A stretch of 64,000 nt of DNA, from positions 66,948-130,947 of IMG/VR virus record IMGVR_UViG_3300016466_000859, one strand, 5' to 3'. Positions 9,263-53,468 of this stretch are shown here, piece by piece (the first letter of the stretch is position 1; every line of letters starts with the position of its first letter). The notes beneath the pieces are model-generated. The model saw nothing but the letters and a program-made list of their open reading frames with translations, did no database searches and was not told the DNA's origin. The position numbers were made by a program, and so were the translations under genes. The DNA comes from a virus.

Positions 9263-9349
9263 TATTGACGGTGTATACTCAATGAATGCCGGCAAAACAC
9301 CACATTGATTAGACGCTATCATTTATATAACTCCAGGAGAAATAAAACA

Positions 9350-10318
9350 ATGGAAAAAAGAACTCTACGTTGGGTCCTAGCCCACGAACCAATCGAGATC
9401 TTCATTCGTGCCGCGGAAAAATTCGCCAAATCTATCAGTGAGAAGACCAACGGTGCCATCAGCATCGATATCATGACCGCTGAACAATATGGCAAAAAAT
9501 ATCATGGCATGGACAAGGTCGACACACAATATCGCTACGACCTCATCAAGCACTTAGAATCCGGTGAACTTGAAATGAGCCAGATGTACACAACCACATT
9601 GGGCACACACTACGACCAGCAGTTGCTGGCCTTTGATATGCCCTACATTTTCGCCGATCACGATCACGTCGCTCGTGTGCTGGACGGTGAAATCGGTGCT
9701 GGCCTGCGCAAGAGTCTCAGCGAAAAGACCAACATGGCTTCGTTGGCCTTCACATACTCGGGTGGTTTCCGTGTGCTGCCTTCGGCCAAGAAAATCACCA
9801 GCATCACAGAGCTCGCAGGCGAAAAGGTCCGCGTTGGTAGCCCTGTTTCCCTAGAAACATTCAAGGCTCTGGGTTGCGAAGCCGTCGACGGCATCATGAT
9901 CGAAGAGTTGGGCGAAGCCATTGGCGACGGTCGTATTGTTGCCGGTGAAAGCACATACCCACGTCTCTATGGTACCGAGCAGAACATCGCTCCTAGCAAA
10001 ACTGCCAAAGCGGTGATCAACACCGAGCACAGCCTGTTCCTGACAACCATCCTCATCAACAAGGACATCTGGAACAGCTTTGATGCTGAACTCCAACAGT
10101 TCATGCTGGAAGCCGCTCACGAGGCTGCTCTAGAAGAGCGCAAAGAAGCACTGGCCGACATCAAGAAGAACCAAGCTCGGTTGGCCCAAGACGGTGTTGA
10201 AGTGGTTGATCTGCCTGCCACAGAAATCGACCTGTTCCGCAACAAAACAGCAGTGGTCTATGACGTACTCGCTGACATGTTCGAACCCGGTCTGATCAGC
10301 AACATCAAAAACGCCTAA
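9350..10318 (+). CDS. dctP: TRAP transporter substrate-binding protein (DctP family), no signal peptide
   Basis: AGGAG SD before ATG 9350; FDMPYIFADHDH, YSGGFR, LAGEKVRV, HSLFLTTILIN. Confidence 0.85.
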   Translation: MEKRTLRWVLAHEPIEIFIRAAEKFAKSISEKTNGAISIDIMTAEQYGKKYHGMDKVDTQYRYDLIKHLESGELEMSQMYTTTLGTHYDQQLLAFDMPYIFADHDHVARVLDGEIGAGLRKSLSEKTNMASLAFTYSGGFRVLPSAKKITSITELAGEKVRVGSPVSLETFKALGCEAVDGIMIEELGEAIGDGRIVAGESTYPRLYGTEQNIAPSKTAKAVINTEHSLFLTTILINKDIWNSFDAELQQFMLEAAHEAALEERKEALADIKKNQARLAQDGVEVVDLPATEIDLFRNKTAVVYDVLADMFEPGLISNIKNA

Positions 10319-10378: not shown

Positions 10379-10672
10379 TTACTCAGCGGCTTCTGCTTTG
10401 GCAGATTTCTTGGCAGTCGTACCAGGTACTTTGAAGAACTTGGCAAGATCAAAGTTGGTAGCTTCGTTGATGGCATTTACGGTTTCCTCTGTGAGGCGTG
10501 TGCTAATTTCGTTAGCGACTTTGACGGCGCTCTTGGTGTAGGCAGTCTGCCCATCAATAAAACCATTTAACGCTGCCTTAATACCGTCGTGTTGTACGAA
10601 CGTACCGACAACAGTTTTCTTGGCGTTCTGTACTTGGTCGATGTAAAAGTCGGGGGATACATTGTAAAACAT
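10379..10672 (-). CDS. Phasin-like (PHA granule-associated) protein, 97 aa
   Basis: AAGGAG SD; amphipathic helical A/T/K-rich sequence with Lys/Ala tail; PhaR-like operator upstream. Confidence 0.5.
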   Translation of the reverse strand: MFYNVSPDFYIDQVQNAKKTVVGTFVQHDGIKAALNGFIDGQTAYTKSAVKVANEISTRLTEETVNAINEATNFDLAKFFKVPGTTAKKSAKAEAAE

Positions 10673-10761
10673 TTGCTTTCTCCTTGTAGTTAAGCGAGTT
10701 TGGTTACCTTGACCCGCACCGTGCGGCATCTTGGTTTACTGCATTCTTTTGATTGTAACAT

Positions 10762-10782
10762 TATTTATATTGCGGTGCAACA
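10762..10782 (-). promoter_or_regulatory. PhaR-like palindrome fused to TAAATA box
   Basis: Minus strand TGTTGCACCGCAATA-TAAATA; 18/21 identical to 43193-43213. Confidence 0.7.
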
Positions 10783-10886: not shown

Positions 10887-11165
10887 ATGGAAATTATCAT
10901 CATTGTAGCAATTCTTGCCGGTCTCGCTTTTTTTCTGTTCCGTGGCTTTGACGCCAACAAAGACGGTAAAGTGACCTTTGACGAAGTCAAATCAGCTGCC
11001 GATGCCAACAAAGACGGCAAAGTTGATGCCGAAGATGTCAAGGTTGTGGCCACTAAGGCCAAAGCAGTTGCTAAAAAAACAGCCGCTAATATTGGTGCCA
11101 AAACCAAAACTGCTGTCAAAAAAGCCACTGCTAAAAAACCTGCCGCTAAAAAGACAGGCAAATAA
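10887..11165 (+). CDS. Membrane-anchored protein with two DANKDGKV (EF-hand/dockerin-like) loops and a Lys/Ala-rich tail
   Basis: TAAATA at 10851-10856, AGGAG SD; N-terminal TM helix; AKK/KKPAAKK repeats. Confidence 0.8.
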   Translation: MEIIIIVAILAGLAFFLFRGFDANKDGKVTFDEVKSAADANKDGKVDAEDVKVVATKAKAVAKKTAANIGAKTKTAVKKATAKKPAAKKTGK

Positions 11166-11908: not shown

Positions 11909-12130
11909 TTAAAACTTACCACCGTCCATTTCAACGTTGATCCGAGAATCCTCAACCTTTACCTGAAGTTGAGAAGTTAACTCACTGACAAGAGACAGCA
12001 AGGCAAAGATATCCGCATGTAGATTTCTAGCATCTGCGGCAGAAAGATTGAGATCTTTGTGCCCGGTTTGGTTCATGACCTTGACACGGTCATTGAAAGA
12101 TTTTATGTGTAGTCCAGGATTATTGTTCAT
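11909..12130 (-). CDS. Hypothetical phage protein
   Basis: Coupled ORF in operon. Confidence 0.65.
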   Translation of the reverse strand: MNNNPGLHIKSFNDRVKVMNQTGHKDLNLSAADARNLHADIFALLSLVSELTSQLQVKVEDSRINVEMDGGKF

Positions 12131-12599
12131 TTTTTTGTTCCTCTAAGGCTTGCCGCATGCTATCATGATCTTGAAAGGGCCCGAGATACTCGTAGCGGTT
12201 TAGTGTGATCAGTTTGGGGCTAAATTCCTGTATCCAGTTGTCGCCATGTTTTATGAGATAGTACCCAGCACAATAATAACTTTTGCTTTTTTCATTGAGA
12301 CTGTAAATTGGCAGTTGGCGTTGCAGATTGAATATTCCTTTGTATGGCACATGCCGGCATGGAAATCCATATAGCTCTTTGAGCTTGGGTTTTTTGAGAT
12401 CTTTGGTTGCTTTTGATAGTTTGATATTGTACTGTCGCTTGATGGCGATCATACTGGGAAAATACTGCCGGGCCTGATTTTTAACAAATGCAAATCCGCC
12501 ATCCTCCTTGGCCTGGATGGTGGCTACAGGTTTTCCTTCCTGCTCAACTACCCAAAATTTGTTTTTGACTACTGGAGTCGCAATCAATTGATCACTCAT
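12120..12599 (-). CDS. Hypothetical phage protein
   Basis: ATGA-coupled to the rnh-like gene. Confidence 0.7.
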   Translation of the reverse strand: MSDQLIATPVVKNKFWVVEQEGKPVATIQAKEDGGFAFVKNQARQYFPSMIAIKRQYNIKLSKATKDLKKPKLKELYGFPCRHVPYKGIFNLQRQLPIYSLNEKSKSYYCAGYYLIKHGDNWIQEFSPKLITLNRYEYLGPFQDHDSMRQALEEQKNEQ

Positions 12600-13585
12600 G
12601 GTTGATATTCCGCTGATAAGAAATCCACATACTGTTGTACATTGTCACTGATGCGATTGAGTTCATATTTTCCGCAGAACTTCAAGAATTTGGTACCTAC
12701 CTGCCCGACATTCTTACCCACAGAGTTTTCTGCGATAGTCTCTGCGATTTTGATCTTGATGTCGTTGGGCTGTGCAGTGAGATCTACTAGTGTGCGATTT
12801 CTCTCGTAATCGTCCAGAACTCGATGCTCATCACCGTTGTGATCGGTCCATCGTTGAAGCATGAGGTTGTTCCAGTTAAACCCTTTCTTGCCACGATCTT
12901 CGTAGGCCTCTTGAAGACCCACTTTGTTTTTGCTGCCTTTGGTCCTGACACCGGGATAGGCAGAAAACACATTGTCAGTGGGATCACCGCGCATGCATTT
13001 TTCAAACAAGATCCACTGGGGGTCGGGTATCTTTTTGGGCTCCTTGGTCTTTTTATCGATCACAGGCTTGCCCTTCTTGTCAAAGATACCTTCAATGGTG
13101 TGTAGCTCGTCGGCGATGCCGTTGTACTGATTGACATTGGCGGCCAGTAATTGATGGAAGTCAGTGTCACTGCTGACGATGGTATGGTGATCGTCGGGGT
13201 GGCTCTGTATCCATCCTGCGATCAGGTCATCGGCTTCGAGTTCGGGATGCCGCAATACCGTGCAGTTGGTCTTTTCGTACAGGAAGGTCTTGAGCTCGTC
13301 GAAGGCTTCCCAAAAAAGACGATCTTCTTCTTGTTCGCTTTCGGTGAGCGCGGCCCTGGCCACGGCACGATTCTTTTTGTAAGGCTCGTAGAAGTCCTTG
13401 CGCCAACTGCGCCCTTCTAGGCAGAACACCACATGGTCGGCTCGTTGTTCTCTCCATGCTTTGGCCACGCTACTCAGCGTGACATGTACAGCGAAACCCA
13501 AACGGTCCCAGGTGTCCGATTGTCTATGGGCCGCGTGGCGTGCGCGGAAGAAAGTATTAGCGGTGTCTACGATCAGATATCTCAT
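12596..13585 (-). CDS. rnh: T4 RNase H-like 5'-3' exonuclease (FEN/PIN fold)
   Basis: LIVDTAN, YKKNR, EADDLI, SSDTDFHQL, GDPTDNV. Confidence 0.88.
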   Translation of the reverse strand: MRYLIVDTANTFFRARHAAHRQSDTWDRLGFAVHVTLSSVAKAWREQRADHVVFCLEGRSWRKDFYEPYKKNRAVARAALTESEQEEDRLFWEAFDELKTFLYEKTNCTVLRHPELEADDLIAGWIQSHPDDHHTIVSSDTDFHQLLAANVNQYNGIADELHTIEGIFDKKGKPVIDKKTKEPKKIPDPQWILFEKCMRGDPTDNVFSAYPGVRTKGSKNKVGLQEAYEDRGKKGFNWNNLMLQRWTDHNGDEHRVLDDYERNRTLVDLTAQPNDIKIKIAETIAENSVGKNVGQVGTKFLKFCGKYELNRISDNVQQYVDFLSAEYQP

Positions 13586-13591
13586 AGAGTA

Positions 13592-13620
13592 ATAGTAGCA
13601 GTTTATAATAAACGTGTCAA
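13592..13620 (-). promoter_or_regulatory. Sigma70-like promoter, probable leaderless transcript
   Basis: TTGACA-17-TACTAT-6 nt-ATG. Confidence 0.7.
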
Positions 13621-14319
13621 CTCTGGATATAACCGTTTGGCCCAAGCCGCATGCGCATCTGCACCAAAATGATAAGATCCTGTTTTAACAGTAGAGAATC
13701 CATTTTTGGTCAACCAATCGTGGTATGTTTCGGATCGTTCATATGGACCAATAAAACAACCTTCCCAATCTTTTTGTAGATGTATCAGGTTATCCTTGCA
13801 AGAGATATTATTGAATTGAGAATAGCAATTGAAAAACAGGTGCGGGATATCTAACGTGTTGAGATCTTGATGTAGATTCCATATCTTTTCGTGCCATTCA
13901 ATTTCTTTGTTTTCCCACTGTACTCGATCTTGATCAATCACCCATTTGCGATATCGATCAAGCAGGGCCATTGGCACAGTATCATGTCCGCTTCCGTTTA
14001 CTTGCCACCAACGATGGTCATAGAACCACTCTTCTCTTTCCCACGTAGTCCATCCGATCACCACGGCCTGTGGTCTGTGGGTTTTCAGATATTCTCGAGT
14101 GGTCCTTAATATCCTGTCATTGCTGGCTGCAGATTCAGAGTCGTTATATCTATTCCACCCCAATTCTTCGGCTAACTTTGTGCCCCAACACACAGCTTCG
14201 TTATCAGGATGTGGTTTTCTACCCATGTGCCAATATTGACTATCGTCTTCGGCGAAAGCATGAGAATTAACAGCTTCTGCTCCAGCGGCGTTGCTGTCTC
14301 CGTTGATGTAAAGTGTCAC
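13603..14319 (-). CDS. SGNH/GDSL hydrolase-like protein
   Basis: INGDSNAAG block I, ASNDRILR, HFGADAH. Confidence 0.65.
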   Translation of the reverse strand: MTLYINGDSNAAGAEAVNSHAFAEDDSQYWHMGRKPHPDNEAVCWGTKLAEELGWNRYNDSESAASNDRILRTTREYLKTHRPQAVVIGWTTWEREEWFYDHRWWQVNGSGHDTVPMALLDRYRKWVIDQDRVQWENKEIEWHEKIWNLHQDLNTLDIPHLFFNCYSQFNNISCKDNLIHLQKDWEGCFIGPYERSETYHDWLTKNGFSTVKTGSYHFGADAHAAWAKRLYPELTRLL

Positions 14320-41798: not shown

Positions 41799-41885
41799 TC
41801 ATGGTAAGTTGACCCAGATCGCTGCAAACATCAAAGCAATCCAGGCCAATCCAAACAAGAGATTTATTTTATGTCGCGATTTCAA
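41799..41885 (-). CDS. Possible 28-aa membrane peptide
   Basis: TTG start overlapping the aceA stop: [28 protein letters not shown]. Confidence 0.35.
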
Positions 41886-43168
41886 TGGAACTGTTCTTCT
41901 TCAGTGGAACCTTTGAGTGCCTGGGTAGAAGCATCGGCTTCAATGGTGGTGGTCACAGCGTCAAAGTAAGATGTGCCTACTTCTCTTTGGTGCTTGACAG
42001 CTTCGAAACCACGGCCCGCATCAGCAAACTCGCGTTCTTGTAGCTCCACGAAAGCAGACATGCCATCCCTAGCATAACCATGAGCAAGGTCAAACATACT
42101 ATGATTAAGAGCATGGAATCCAGCAAGTGTGATGAATTGAAAACGGTAGCCCATTGCTCCAAGTTCACGTTGGAAACGGCTAATTGTGTCTGCATCTAGA
42201 TTTTTCCTCCAATTGAATGATGGTGAGCAGTTGTAGGCCAGCATCTTGCCGGGGTAGTGTCGTTGTATACCTTCGGCAAATCTGCGTGCGAAGTCGAGGT
42301 CTGGAGTTCCGGTTTCACACCACAGCAAATCGCAATAAGGTGCATAGGCAATCCCTCGTGCCAATGCCTGATCAAAACCTTTGCGAGTGCGATAAAATCC
42401 TTCCACGGTGCGTTCGCCAGTTAAGAAAGGTCGATCATTCTCATCAATATCAGATGTAACTAAGTCTGCAGCTTCGGCGTCGGTACGAGCGAGCAATACT
42501 GTAGGTACCCCCATGACGTCGGCAGCCAATCTCGCGGCAATCAGTTTGTTGACAGCTTCACGAGTAGGCACCAAAACTTTACCACCCATGTGACCGCATT
42601 TTTTCACTGAAGCGAGTTGATCTTCGAAGTGTACTCCTGCGGCACCAGCTTCGATCATGGCTTTCATCAACTCGAATGCGTTAAGCACACCGCCGAACCC
42701 AGCCTCGGCGTCGGCTACGATGGGAGCGAAGAAATCTCTGCTTCCGTTTTGTTCCATCCACTGTATCTGATCTGCACGGGTGAAGGTGGCATTTATTTTG
42801 CGTACCACTTCCGGTACCGAGTTTACTGGATATAAACTCTGATCGGGATACATTTCTCCAGCGGTGTTAGCATCGCCCGCTACCTGCCATCCCGAAAGGT
42901 ATATGGCCTTTAATCCTGCTTTAACTTGTTGTAAGGCCTGCATGCCAGTCAAAGCACCCAAGGTATTGACATAATCTTCTGTGTGTAACAGATTCCACAA
43001 CTTTTCGGCTCCGCGTTTGGCCAAGCTGTACTCAATGGGATTCGATCCTTGTAGGTTGATTACTTGCCGTGCGTCATAAGTGCGTTTGATTCCGGCCCAT
43101 CTCGGGTTGTCGCTCCAGTCTTTTTGCAGTTGATATGCTTTCCAATCGCGTGGCTTTTCCGTTGACAT
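41882..43168 (-). CDS. aceA: Isocitrate lyase
   Basis: [39 protein letters not shown] signature, [21 protein letters not shown]. Confidence 0.97.
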
Positions 43169-43192
43169 GTCAATCTCCTTGTATTGATAAAG

Positions 43193-43213
43193 TATTTATG
43201 TTGCTATGCAACA
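43193..43213 (-). promoter_or_regulatory. PhaR-like palindrome fused to TAAATA box
   Basis: Minus strand TGTTGCATAGCAACA-TAAATA; perfect 6-3-6 inverted repeat. Confidence 0.72.
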
Positions 43214-43977: not shown

Positions 43978-44421
43978 TTATTTGAGACTGGCTCTCAACA
44001 TCCAGGAGTGTTTGCGGTGTGCGTCCATGCGTCCAGCAAGGAAGTCGGCTAGTCCTTCTTCACCGGCTTCGGTGGCCATGTCAAACACACGCTTGAGGAT
44101 CTTGACCATCTTGTCAGAGTCGTCGAGCAGTTCTTGGCACATGTCTTCGGCGGCCAGGATGGCAGTTTCATCGTCGACCATGCTGAGCATGCTGAAACGA
44201 GTGAATGACCCTGGTGTATAGGAATCCAGCTTGCGGATATTTTCTGCGAACAGGTCGATGCTGCCATAGACCTCTTCGTAGATGTCACCGAACAGTTCAT
44301 GGAACTGCGCGAAGTGTATGCCTTCCACATTCCAGTGAAAGTTGTGTGCTTTGAGATAAAACGCGAACTCAGATGAGAACGCGATCTTCATGGCTTTTTT
44401 GAGTTCGTCCATCTTAATCAA
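43978..44421 (-). CDS. dps: Dps/ferritin-like protein
   Basis: YLKAHNFHWNVEG, FHELF, DLFAENIR, KHSWML. Confidence 0.92.
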   Translation of the reverse strand: MIKMDELKKAMKIAFSSEFAFYLKAHNFHWNVEGIHFAQFHELFGDIYEEVYGSIDLFAENIRKLDSYTPGSFTRFSMLSMVDDETAILAAEDMCQELLDDSDKMVKILKRVFDMATEAGEEGLADFLAGRMDAHRKHSWMLRASLK

Positions 44422-49571: not shown

Positions 49572-50306
49572 TTATTCAGCCACTACAATCTCATTTATAT
49601 TTGATATTATCCCGGGTCGTATCAGCTCGACAAATGTGTTGATGCTGAGGTCGTTGGTGTAAAAATATACTCCCCAAAAAGATGAAAATGGAGTCTTCAT
49701 CATTTCTCGAGGGCCACGAGGGAGAAACACCAGATCTTCCAAAGATTCGAGATAATTCAGTAAATTGATTTTTGTGCCAGGATCAACGCGGCAATCTCTC
49801 ATGGACACTTTGTAACGATAGGGATTTCGTCGAGATTCCCGTATGATCTTGTTTTCTTTCAACAAAATTTCTGATTTCGAATCTTTGGGCACTGTAATAG
49901 AAGAAACCCGAGTCTGATCTTCGCTGGAGAATTTTTTAATGAAATTTTTGAGATCTTGTTCAGATTCGGCATAGATCTGCACTTTGGGTTCTTCGACTCT
50001 AATTTTGATCGCCGAATCGGTCAACAGTTTTTTGAGTGTTTCAAGTTGCGACTCGGCGGCCTGATCGATGTATTTTCGATGACGGTGATTATAGTTTGAA
50101 GGCCAGCTTCTCGAATATATTCCAAGCTCGAAAATCTGTTTTTGTTCTATCAATTCTCTAATAGAGCTATGCTCGTCGTAGATAAACCTTCCACCGGGGC
50201 AAAAAATTTCCAACCGATAAACATATCGACCAAAATATATTTTTTTGGTGTTGTGGATTTTTATCTTGGAATTAAGGTTTATCCAGTACAATATATCCAT
50301 GTTCAT
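49572..50306 (-). CDS. Hypothetical phage protein
   Basis: 244 aa ORF downstream of clpA. Confidence 0.72.
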   Translation of the reverse strand: MNMDILYWINLNSKIKIHNTKKIYFGRYVYRLEIFCPGGRFIYDEHSSIRELIEQKQIFELGIYSRSWPSNYNHRHRKYIDQAAESQLETLKKLLTDSAIKIRVEEPKVQIYAESEQDLKNFIKKFSSEDQTRVSSITVPKDSKSEILLKENKIIRESRRNPYRYKVSMRDCRVDPGTKINLLNYLESLEDLVFLPRGPREMMKTPFSSFWGVYFYTNDLSINTFVELIRPGIISNINEIVVAE

Positions 50307-52557
50307 CCACCACGTCGTGAGCTGGGAAACCTTGCTTGATATCGAACGTTATCTCGTTTTCAACATAGTCTACAACGATCATCGATCCCGGCAACACCTT
50401 TTCAAACAATATTTTACGACTCAACGGTACCTTTATGAGATCGTTGATTTTCCTTGACAACGGCCTTGCGCCCATTTTGGGATCGTAGCCCACTTCAGCA
50501 AGATAATCGATCACCGACTCAGTGAAACGTAATTTTAGATTTTTTTCGCTGAGCAGATCATTGATCTCACCAGTGAATTTGACCACTATCTTCTTCATGC
50601 TGAGCTGGTCTAAAGGTTTGAATTTACAAACCCCATCTAGTCTATTACGGAACTCAGGCTTGAAGAAATCCTTGACTGCACGATCATCCTCGCCGGTTTT
50701 CTGGAAACTGCGGCCCATGCCAATGGCGTTGCGTTCCGAGTCAGCGGCACCCAGGTTACTGGTCAGGATCACGATGGTGTTGCGGCAGTCGGCTTTCTTA
50801 CCGTTGCTGGAAGTGATCATACCTTCGTCCATGAGGTTTAGTAGCACGTTAGTGACATCGGGGTGTGCTTTTTCGATCTCGTCGAACAAGATCACCGAGT
50901 TGGGATTTTTTTCTACGTCACTGATCAGCAAGCCACCGCCCAAGTTAGAGTCGTCGTAGCCCACATATCCCGGAGGAGCACCAATCAGTTTTGAAGCCGA
51001 GTGCTTCTCCTGGTATTCGCTCATGTCATAGCGTAGGAGTTTCATGCCTAGGTTGTCGGCCAGTGCTTTGGCCAGTTCTGTTTTACCCGTGCCAGTGGGC
51101 CCAATAAACAAGAAGTTGCCAATGGGCTTGTTGATGGCCTTGAGACCGGCCTTGCTGACATAGATCTTTTCCAAAACCTGATCCACTGCATCGTCTTGAC
51201 CAAACAAGCGATTCTTGATTTTTGATTCAAAGTCTCCAATGTCTCGAATTTCTTGAGACTCGCTGATCTGATCTGCGGGAATCTTGGTAAACTTGCTGAT
51301 GGCATCGATGATGTTGCTCTTGCCAATGATCCATTCGGTGTGATTTATCTTGGCCTTGGCGCATGCTGTATCAATAAGGTCGATGGCTTTGTCAGGCAAT
51401 TTTTTATCAGTTTGATAACGCACAGAAAGATCAACGGCCGCATCAAGTGCATCATTGTTGATCTTTCCGCCATGGAAATCTTCGAAGTATGTTTTCAACC
51501 CGCGCAGTATTTCTTTGGCCACTGCAGGGGTGGGTTCTTCAATGGCCAATCTGTAGAAACGTCGCATCAATGCGCGATCTTTTTCAAAGCTCTGTGTGTA
51601 TTCTTCCCAGGTCGTGCTGGCTATGACTTTGATCTGCCCTTTGTTCAGGGCTGGTTTGATCATGTTGGCAAAATCTACGCTGCTGGAAGATCCCGACCCA
51701 GCACCTCTCATTTGATGTGCTTCGTCGATGAACAGAATAGTTTTTCCAACAACGTCAAGGGCTCCTAGCACTTCTTTGAGTTTCTCTTCGAATTCACCAC
51801 GATACTTGCTGCCGGCCAATAACCCGCCGATGTCGAGATTGTAAACTGTGAAGTCTTTGAGGTAGTCGGGGACTTCTCCGTTGATGATGTTGAGTGCCAG
51901 ACCTTCGGCGATGGCAGTCTTACCTACACCAGGATCGCCCACCATGAGCACGTTGCTTTTGTTTCGCTTGGCCAACACATGAGTTATTTCTGTTATCTCG
52001 GCTTCTCTGCCGATCACGGGATCTATTTTACCTTCCTGTGCCAGTTCATTGAGATTATCGCAGTATTCGCGTAGTACCTCGTTGGCCCGTGCTTTGTTTT
52101 TTCCTTTGATGTCTTGGCGTTTGTCTTTCCAGTGTTCATTGTAAAAATCCACTAACTGTGATCGATCGATGCCGTACTTCATCAAGAAATAGGCTGCGTG
52201 GCTGTTGGATTCTTGCCAGATGCTCAGGAGTAGATCAATGATCTGTATGTGAGTCCTGCCAGAGAACAATACCTGTGTAAACGCTCGGTTAAATACTCTT
52301 TCTAGGGCATGTGTTTTTTTGGGATCTATATCGGTGTCGGCAGCAACGAGATGTCTCTGGGTGGTCAGATACATGGTGAGATCATCTGTTAGTCCTTCAA
52401 CATCGGCACCGAAGTTTTTCAATAGATCATAAAATGGACGATAGCTCAGCACACCGTGTAAAAGATGTTCCACTGTCACATAACGGTGTTTCAGCTGCCG
52501 TGCGGCATTAGTGGCAGAATCAATGACTACTTCAATTTCTGGGTTTGGTTGTATCAT
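50272..52557 (-). CDS. clpA: ClpA-like Hsp100 AAA+ chaperone
   Basis: Clp N-domain (HRYVTVEHLL), GDPGVGKT, AGSKYRGEFEE, GPTGTGKT, GAPPGYVG, FDEIEKAHPDV, IGM loop, MGARPL. Confidence 0.92.
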   Translation of the reverse strand: MIQPNPEIEVVIDSATNAARQLKHRYVTVEHLLHGVLSYRPFYDLLKNFGADVEGLTDDLTMYLTTQRHLVAADTDIDPKKTHALERVFNRAFTQVLFSGRTHIQIIDLLLSIWQESNSHAAYFLMKYGIDRSQLVDFYNEHWKDKRQDIKGKNKARANEVLREYCDNLNELAQEGKIDPVIGREAEITEITHVLAKRNKSNVLMVGDPGVGKTAIAEGLALNIINGEVPDYLKDFTVYNLDIGGLLAGSKYRGEFEEKLKEVLGALDVVGKTILFIDEAHQMRGAGSGSSSSVDFANMIKPALNKGQIKVIASTTWEEYTQSFEKDRALMRRFYRLAIEEPTPAVAKEILRGLKTYFEDFHGGKINNDALDAAVDLSVRYQTDKKLPDKAIDLIDTACAKAKINHTEWIIGKSNIIDAISKFTKIPADQISESQEIRDIGDFESKIKNRLFGQDDAVDQVLEKIYVSKAGLKAINKPIGNFLFIGPTGTGKTELAKALADNLGMKLLRYDMSEYQEKHSASKLIGAPPGYVGYDDSNLGGGLLISDVEKNPNSVILFDEIEKAHPDVTNVLLNLMDEGMITSSNGKKADCRNTIVILTSNLGAADSERNAIGMGRSFQKTGEDDRAVKDFFKPEFRNRLDGVCKFKPLDQLSMKKIVVKFTGEINDLLSEKNLKLRFTESVIDYLAEVGYDPKMGARPLSRKINDLIKVPLSRKILFEKVLPGSMIVVDYVENEITFDIKQGFPAHDVVDEHGYIVLDKP

Positions 52558-52634: not shown

Positions 52635-53468
52635 TTATTTGCTGGGTTTTAGGTTCTCGAGTATTTGTTTTTGATCCGGATCAGTGATCGACCTTATCTT
52701 CACCTGCACCTCTACTATGATATTTCCACGATGTTGCGAATTTGTGGAATACAGACCTTGATCTTTGATGCGTAATCTTGTGCCCGGTTGACATCCCGAC
52801 GGGATGGTCAGCAAAAAAGTCCGCCCGTCGATGCCGGTGATTTCATGCTGTGTTCCTATCATGGCATCGATGGCATCGATTTTGATTTCTGTTACGAGAT
52901 CAGAATTTACTACTCGAAAACGAGCGTGCGGTGCCAAAAAAACCACAATATATAGATCACCACGTGGGAGTGTTTCGAAAAAATTGTCGCCGAGACCGGT
53001 GTATTTTATCGTCGATCCGTGCTCGATACCTCGCGGAATATTGATGCTGAGCGTTTCTCTGTGGCCATTGGTTGTCTGTATATGTATGGTTTTTCCAATG
53101 GATTGTAAGGTTTCTTCTAACGGTAGTTCAACATTGACTCGTATATCTTTGTTACGGCGAGGCTGTCGCATGCGATCAAATGGGTTTACGTCGCCGAATC
53201 CAAACTCTCTGAATATATCATTGATGTTTCCATCATGGGGATTCCAATTGAATCGTATTCCGCCGTGATTGATACCTTGTCGTTCGAGATCGTACTGCTG
53301 TCGTTTTTCGGTATCGCCTAATATGCCATAAGCCTGCTGTATTTCTTGGAAACGAACTTTGTCACCACCTTTGTCGGGGTGGTGCTGGCTGGCCAATCGC
53401 CGAAAAGCCTTTTTTATTTCTTCCTGAGAGGCGTTTTCAGAAACACCCAAGGTATCGTAGAATGACAT
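52635..53468 (-). CDS. dnaJ: DnaJ/CbpA-type co-chaperone (no Zn finger)
   Basis: J-domain HHPDKGG; C-terminal domain GDLY, TIPSGCQPG. Confidence 0.9.
   Translation of the reverse strand: MSFYDTLGVSENASQEEIKKAFRRLASQHHPDKGGDKVRFQEIQQAYGILGDTEKRQQYDLERQGINHGGIRFNWNPHDGNINDIFREFGFGDVNPFDRMRQPRRNKDIRVNVELPLEETLQSIGKTIHIQTTNGHRETLSINIPRGIEHGSTIKYTGLGDNFFETLPRGDLYIVVFLAPHARFRVVNSDLVTEIKIDAIDAMIGTQHEITGIDGRTFLLTIPSGCQPGTRLRIKDQGLYSTNSQHRGNIIVEVQVKIRSITDPDQKQILENLKPSK

Follow-up and report, generated by a model that had tools for sequence, protein, structure and literature searches.

A phage isocitrate lyase gene and a small-protein gene with a common predicted PhaR-type operator and promoter element

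What does a phage gain from carrying aceA, the gene for isocitrate lyase (ICL), and what decides when this gene is switched on? To our knowledge, catalogues of phage auxiliary metabolic genes usually record just their presence, and a matching of their expression to host physiology is known in very few cases. Control of cyanophage pstS and phoA through PhoB boxes is an instance in which a host regulator governs phage auxiliary genes. The question is raised here by a viral stretch of DNA of 64,000 nucleotides (the window). An earlier note on this stretch had described an intact aceA gene behind a PhaR-like operator-promoter that is shared with a phasin-like gene, and had proposed that both genes form a module converting the PHB reserves of the host into biomass precursors. 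The features of the two loci are compiled in Table 1.

Table 1. Features of the aceA and small-gene loci (positions within the window).
Feature	Position	Strand	Basis
aceA, isocitrate lyase, 428 aa (P0001)	41882–43168	-	Pfam, PDB, catalytic residues
Shine-Dalgarno sequence AAGGAG, 6 nt 5' of the aceA ATG	43175–43180	-	read from sequence
(C)ATAAATA box, candidate phage promoter element of −10 type	43193–43199	-	recurrent before start codons
PhaR/PhbF-type operator TGTTGCATAGCAACA, perfect 6-N3-6 palindrome	43199–43213	-	fits TG[N]TGC[N]3GCAA
Co-regulated small gene, 97 aa (P0121), 'phasin-like'	10379–10672	-	helical hairpin, Lys/Ala-rich tail
Second operator-promoter copy, TGTTGCACCGCAATA + TAAATA	10762–10782	-	21-mer match; conserved TACAAT 10752–10757
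Divergent gene, 92-aa membrane-anchored EF-hand protein	10887–11165	+	Pfam EF-hand_1, E 2.3e-9

The aceA gene is intact, as the earlier note had read it, with an open reading frame uninterrupted by stops and a Shine-Dalgarno sequence in front of it. Its product, an ICL (EC 4.1.3.1) of the prokaryotic ~430-aa type, matches the Pfam family ICL (PF00463) over the full length (E 4e-108; 362.6 bits at a cut-off of 26), and the ICLs in the PDB align to residues 7–427 with E values from 1e-183 to 1e-220. The best solved relative is the enzyme of Burkholderia pseudomallei (PDB entry 3I4E, E 1.5e-220, residues 7–427). Both proteins share a near-full-length alignment with conserved catalytic loop and substrate residues, whereas the phage protein has a deletion of five residues after the QIQW segment and sits in a separate viral clade. 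The catalytic loop KKCGH is located at residues 189–193. Canonical substrate/Mg residues are found in SGW (92–94), as Asp153 and Glu155 in DAEAG (from 153) and as Glu182 in EDQ (from 182); Arg228, Thr347 and, in NCSPSFNW (from 313), Asn313, Ser315 and Ser317 complete this set. KKCGH and NCSPSFNW are invariant in all 38 members of the viral clade, and the dN/dS ratio against phage homologues is 0.055–0.072 (about 0.06), with dS near saturation. Together, the invariant motifs and this ratio at near-saturated dS indicate that aceA has long been resident in phages under strong purifying selection. Such selection argues for an enzyme that cleaves isocitrate to succinate and glyoxylate.

A phylogenetic tree computed for 135 ICLs places the window protein within the 38-sequence viral clade (SH-like support 97). 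This clade adjoins, or nests within, the ICLs of Burkholderiales, where the bacterial rows of the tree are the best GTDB matches and hence Burkholderiales by selection. A second viral clade, which is marine and includes Phage C48C1, stands apart. The hosts of the clade are most likely PHB-accumulating Burkholderiales.

The IMG/VR contig whose latter half forms the window has 130,947 bp and a GC content of 45.8%. According to CheckV this contig is ~37% complete, i.e. 63% of the genome is unseen. Its genes around aceA are viral: the first half encodes a baseplate wedge subunit (E 9e-303), tail fibres and virion proteins, and the contig also encodes an SbcC-like nuclease and a family-B DNA polymerase, the latter inside the window. 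This polymerase is common to five other ICL-encoding IMG/VR records (72–92% identity), three of which have 316–337 kb and are 91–100% complete, one with terminal repeats. Therefore, the ICL-bearing group is a set of huge phages of about 320–340 kb. A megablast search with 20 kb of the window gave no match among GenBank phages, and the only GenBank phage with an ICL is Phage C48C1 (Kyanoviridae), whose enzyme is distant (57% identity).

Host contamination or a chimeric assembly, the latter named by the earlier note as a danger to its reading, could explain why the nearest cellular ICL relatives are bacterial (79% identity) and why Logan contigs stop within the conserved part of aceA. This explanation is contradicted by several observations. 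In the closest relative (G001), an independent 207-kb contig from another metagenome, both flanks of aceA are homologous to window genes: downstream these encode PP-loop-type units, and the upstream ones include genes of a DUF3008 protein and of a ferritin-like protein with 96% identity. Three further studies supplied contigs across the 5' junction, which span from the aceA interior via the promoter to upstream phage genes with 1–15 differences. The 3' junction is unbridged by the listed Logan contigs and is covered by the G001 synteny instead. GC content and gene orientation run on unbroken from aceA into its flanks, and a viral ICL clade with 38 members exists. A chimeric assembly at aceA is effectively excluded, and we assign a negligible probability to a host origin of the gene by contamination or misassembly.

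What lies in front of the gene corresponds to the arrangement given in the earlier note: the 15-bp palindrome TGTTGCATAGCAACA runs directly into TAAATA (43193–43198, minus strand). The resulting 21-mer pattern TGTTGCAnnGCAAnATAAATA has exactly two copies in the whole contig of 130,947 bp. Both are minus-strand copies, one before aceA and the other 32 kb away before the gene of the small protein P0121. With three mismatches allowed, the 15-mer is found four times against 2.2 expected, which is not above chance. Hence, the significance rests on the 21-mer, the non-coding position and the conservation. Both sites, TGTTGCATAGCAA and TGTTGCACCGCAA, fit the PhaR/PhbF operator consensus TG[N]TGC[N]3GCAA. 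This consensus has five matches in the contig, of which two are intragenic; the remaining ones are the two non-coding sites, the aceA palindrome being counted on both strands. Non-coding DNA amounts to ~5.5% of the contig. In G001 the box with TAA[AG]TA is present at the same two loci only.

For a comparison of upstream regions, 35 non-redundant members of the viral clade having such a region were used. TGC-N3-GCA abuts TAAATA at 11 of these 35 loci in addition to the window, and a box variant with one mismatch (GCC half-site) is found at seven. TAAATA without a box occurs at four loci, and neither element at 13, mostly operonic ones. With these 13 loci, the complete genome G003 among them, lacking the box, its wiring is not universal in the viral ICL clade. 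The marine phage ICLs of the separate clade are without the box. In diverged phage ICL upstream regions the box, TAAATA and the Shine-Dalgarno sequence are conserved while the rest is unrelated, and most phage ICL genes still have TAAATA in front of them. The distance between box and TAAATA varies by 1–3 nt across the phage ICL loci. Such variation is in line with two neighbouring elements, each under its own constraint, and not with a single composite site of recognition. In a sub-branch of phage ICL genes (loci L130–L134) a TGC-N4-GCA variant, GTGCAAATGCAAC, is located ~40 nt before the ICL start, followed by CATACATA where TAAATA would be; this arrangement may represent the operator-promoter in a diverged state.

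ATAAATA occurs 19 times in the contig and is not over-represented overall. About a dozen of these copies lie 25–50 nt before start codons on both strands, which suggests a phage promoter element of the −10 type. A scan with the sigma-70 consensus called no canonical promoter at aceA or at the small gene, and a search for RNA runs that contain the aceA locus gave none. Before the small gene, TACAAT is located 4 nt downstream of TAAATA and is invariant in relatives even where ATAAATA is changed to ATAAGTA; the true −10 element at this gene may be TACAAT. At a distance of 1–3 nt from the conserved TAAATA, the box would presumably overlap contacts of RNA polymerase at the promoter. Other explanations of these elements were rejected. 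The late promoter of T4 type, TATAAATA, which might have accounted for them in general, has only three exact copies in the contig. The box accompanies just two of the ATAAATA copies and is not part of a general promoter class. For a sigma-54 reading of TTGCAC, the GG/GC spacing is absent, as judged by eye.

The consensus itself comes from footprinting at the phbF promoter of Herbaspirillum seropedicae (PMC3206438). For a direct comparison, phaP (Phasin_2) and phaR (PHB_acc_N) were located in five Burkholderiales genomes whose aceA is among those closest to the phage gene. The upstream regions of both genes contain boxes of the form TG[CT]TGC-N3-GCA[AC]CA at a distance of 33–220 nt, for example TGTTGCAGTGCAACA and TGCTGCACCGCAACA, and the phaP promoters often have two boxes each. 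With this 15-mer the phage palindrome agrees perfectly. The PhaR-like operator-promoter that the earlier note had assigned to aceA and the small gene in common is thus borne out by the published consensus and by the phaP/phaR boxes of Burkholderiales.

A similar arrangement exists in the bacterial aceA genes. A box within 250 nt upstream is found at 36 of 79 Burkholderiales loci (L002–L081). The density before aceA is 2.3 sites/kb, whereas the remaining non-coding DNA of these loci has 0.17 sites/kb and the overall value is 0.11. Over the remaining non-coding DNA this is a 13-fold enrichment, for which related genomes inflate the p-values. The bacterial boxes are located at −50 to −240, whereas the phage box is at −45 and fused to the promoter element. 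Upstream of aceA of Undibacterium jejuense, TGTTGCTATGCAAAA at −66 is identical to the phage box on the other strand in 14 of 15 positions. The boxes at these 36 loci suggest that the PhaR regulon of Burkholderiales widely includes aceA, a membership that has not been described before. In Sinorhizobium meliloti, an ICL-family protein belongs to a module that is repressed by PhaR and derepressed by PHB (PMC12542648).

Compared with the known PhaR/PhbF/AniA-phasin circuit, the phage loci have the same operator class (TG[N]TGC[N]3GCAA) with a TGC-N3-GCA core and AT-rich arms. The phage operator would likewise be placed at or over a promoter, and a gene of a small helical protein would be among the targets. 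An ICL-family protein as a target is shared with the S. meliloti module (PMC12542648). In contrast to the bacterial circuit, the operators stand on phage genes, no PhaR gene was found in the phage contig or in five relatives, binding is predicted, and the small protein is not a demonstrable member of Phasin_2.

How well, then, does the name 'phasin-like' suit the product of the second gene? Translation of P0121 starts at 10672 behind a strong Shine-Dalgarno sequence, AAGGAG. In four relatives the box before this gene keeps the half-sites TTGC/GCAA, with N3 spacers ACC, GCC, GGT, AAT and AGT. The AF2 model (pLDDT 82.6) has helices at residues 7–25 and 29–73, which form a helical hairpin, and a disordered Lys/Ala tail. 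This fold would be compatible with binding to PHB granules, albeit unspecific. A profile search places P0121 in a family of at least 284 cluster representatives with 56–161 aa, and its nearest ESM Atlas clusters are 100% viral. Alone, P0121 has no Pfam match even at E 10, which includes Phasin_2 (PF09361), and no PHROG match. Alignment of the family with six PhaP of Burkholderiales by hhalign gave a probability of 0.6%, and a Foldseek search with the model found nothing in the PDB at E ≤ 0.001. On the other hand, nine of 150 relatives weakly match Phasin_2 (best E 1.2e-4), the sole family matched by more than one of them. The nearest named ESM clusters are PHB_acc (0.82) and Phasin_2 (0.81), which serve as leads only, and the top BFVD match is 'Phasin [uncultured Caudovirales phage]' (32% identity, E 0.011). 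The signals for a phasin relationship are recurrent but weak. Because the hhalign comparison with PhaP is negative and the Foldseek search against the PDB uninformative, we do not file P0121 as a phasin. The phasin-like identity claimed before for the partner gene is thus weak.

Some further features were observed around the small gene. The gene of the EF-hand protein diverges from the operator-bearing intergenic region, and the same arrangement is present in G001. This protein has an N-terminal hydrophobic helix, two DxNxDG loops and a Lys-rich tail. The leader of the small gene (10673–10750, minus strand, ~75 nt) is highly conserved in relatives and contains the hairpin CCGCACGGTGCGG; an Rfam scan of this leader gave nothing above the gathering score. 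Convergent with the small gene, a DctP-type solute-binding protein of TRAP transporters (Pfam DctP, E 4e-39) is encoded at 9305–10318 on the plus strand. Typical ligands of DctP proteins are C4-dicarboxylates such as succinate, and the phage protein may be the product of another auxiliary gene for carbon acquisition. In the relative G002 (locus L184, G002 80001–100000; 12049–14004), the genes of ICL and the small protein are just 3 kb apart, with genes of a class II aldolase and a fatty-acid desaturase between them. The surroundings of the G002 ICL gene contain no PHB-related genes; its neighbours encode the class II aldolase, the fatty-acid desaturase, UvdE and ClpP.

Which parts of a pathway does the phage supply? 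Malate synthase (PF01274), whose absence had been noted for the window, is absent from the whole contig and from four relatives, three of them 91–100% complete. Accordingly, ICL is not accompanied by malate synthase as in a glyoxylate-shunt operon aceBA. PhaR (PF07879, PHB_acc_N) was found neither in the contig nor in five relatives, three of which are 91–100% complete, and PHB depolymerases (PF06850, PF10503) neither in the contig nor in four relatives including all three near-complete genomes. The companions that the earlier note had advised looking for in the rest of the genome, aceB, phaZ and phaR, are thus found neither in the contig (~37% complete) nor in the searched relatives. No gene of a PHB depolymerase, PhaC or PhaR accompanies aceA and the small gene. 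Since PHB_acc_N is missing in the contig and five relatives, the regulator would be that of the host. With malate synthase, depolymerases and PhaR absent, the contribution of the phage appears to be ICL and the small protein, not a pathway.

The best overall explanation, which we regard as fairly probable, is an active phage ICL that is controlled by the PhaR of the host via a PhaR-type operator. For a functional cis-element common to the two genes as such, our confidence is higher than for PhaR itself. A clade of uncultured aquatic huge phages would carry the active enzyme vertically. The aceA gene would be transcribed from a phage promoter of the TAAATA type that is abutted by the 15-bp PhaR/PhbF-type palindrome. 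PhaR, the PHB-sensing repressor of the host, would occupy the box when no surface of PHB granules is available and would leave it when PHB is present. ICL and the small helical protein, the latter from the second identical operator-promoter, would then be made only in cells with a carbon store. Isocitrate would be drawn off by ICL, yielding succinate and glyoxylate, and malate synthase of the host would complete the shunt. The phage probably turns on aceA according to the carbon reserve of its host. That PhaR binds the box, in which direction it regulates, that the small protein attaches to granules and that the carbon comes from PHB are steps that we infer. The proposed module turning PHB into biomass holds in part: the intact viral aceA and the shared operator were found, but the phasin identity is weak and no gene of a depolymerase, PhaC or PhaR accompanies the two genes. 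From the operator such a module may reasonably be expected; it is not a demonstrated pathway.

A more far-reaching reading is put forward tentatively. It may be that a freshwater huge-phage lineage has wired a regulon of two or more genes to the PhaR of its host and in this way reads the carbon store. ICL would then be made only in the presence of this store, together with a phage-specific, granule-associated protein that helps to open up PHB or to make use of it. Incidentally, aceA might turn out to be a core gene of the PhaR regulon throughout Burkholderiales that has so far gone unrecognised.

The palindrome might serve another protein, either a different phage regulator or a host factor, as an operator or as an activator site, and resemble a PhaR site by coincidence. 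Such a protein would be in line with the simplicity of short TGC-N3-GCA palindromes, with the phage-type promoter element that the box abuts, with the large unseen part (63%) of this phage genome and with the fact that PhaR binding at the box is a prediction from sequence. We consider it unlikely, since the agreement extends beyond the core to the 13–15-bp consensus, and since the box precedes aceA and a small helical protein, whose bacterial counterparts bear the same box. Moreover, an element of a promoter class should be found at many phage genes, not at two. The box could also be a non-functional relic of a bacterial aceA promoter that was captured with the gene, for such boxes are present at aceA genes of the donor order. 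A relic is very improbable, however: an unrelated phage gene has the second copy in front of it, the box has been kept in lineages with saturated ICL dS while the flanking upstream sequence is unconserved, and its fusion to the promoter element at −45 differs from the bacterial positions.

Another matter is the purpose of the enzyme, which may be unrelated to PHB, with the PhaR box, if functional, acting just as a switch for nutrient status. Candidate purposes are carbon sparing on acetate or fatty acids, a lowering of NADH/ROS and a bypass of iron-demanding steps of the TCA cycle. The lack of a PHB depolymerase in the contig and in the four searched relatives, near-complete ones included, points in this direction. 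So do the ferritin-like gene two genes upstream of aceA and the DctP-type dicarboxylate-binding protein encoded next to the small gene. In addition, marine phage ICLs of the separate clade are without the box, and 13 of 35 members of the clade discussed here have ICL without it. We nevertheless judge a purpose apart from PHB to be somewhat doubtful, as the operator is specifically of the type used by the PHB sensor and the co-regulated partner gives weak phasin-like signals. Control of the phage ICL by the host PhaR remains our preferred explanation.

Phage ICL as such is already known, and among the products of phage auxiliary metabolic genes the enzyme is nothing unusual. ICL was reported in viromes (PMC4053976), an aceBA operon in a 179-kb marine (Tara) viral genome (PMC5332604) and 98 ICL genes in huge phages, of which the freshwater ones are without malate synthase (bioRxiv 10.1101/2025.02.27.640493). 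The phage studied here agrees with the reported cases (huge phages, marine T4-like phages, viromes) in carrying aceA as an auxiliary metabolic gene, and with the freshwater huge phages in having ICL without malate synthase (bioRxiv 10.1101/2025.02.27.640493). It differs in that those accounts, in their accessible parts, cover the presence of the gene only and make no mention of a host-type operator, a co-regulated small protein or a single viral clade derived from Burkholderiales. Likewise, no PhaR-type operator on phage genes turned up in the accessible parts of the literature. The regulatory part is what stands out, as a well-supported in-silico prediction. It would follow the same logic as the PhoB boxes of cyanophages, in which a phage metabolic gene has a site for a regulator of host nutrient status and is expressed only when useful. 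The two cases differ in the regulator, here PhaR as the sensor of a polymer that stores carbon, in the host group and in the target genes.

If the prediction is true, a PhaR-type operator on phage promoters means that a virus reads the carbon-storage state of its host, and the PHB reserves of abundant freshwater Burkholderiales are linked to viral production and carbon flow. The analysis also predicts that the bacterial aceA belongs to the PhaR regulon of Burkholderiales, which is testable in Cupriavidus or Herbaspirillum.

Finally, a host-like set of iron, stress and chaperone genes was observed near aceA. It comprises the ferritin-like protein (43978–44421, minus strand; Pfam Ferritin, E 1e-21), a ClpA/B-type AAA+ ATPase (50272–52557, minus strand; PHROG 'ATP-dependent protease', E 3e-244) and a DnaJ homologue (52635–53468, minus strand).
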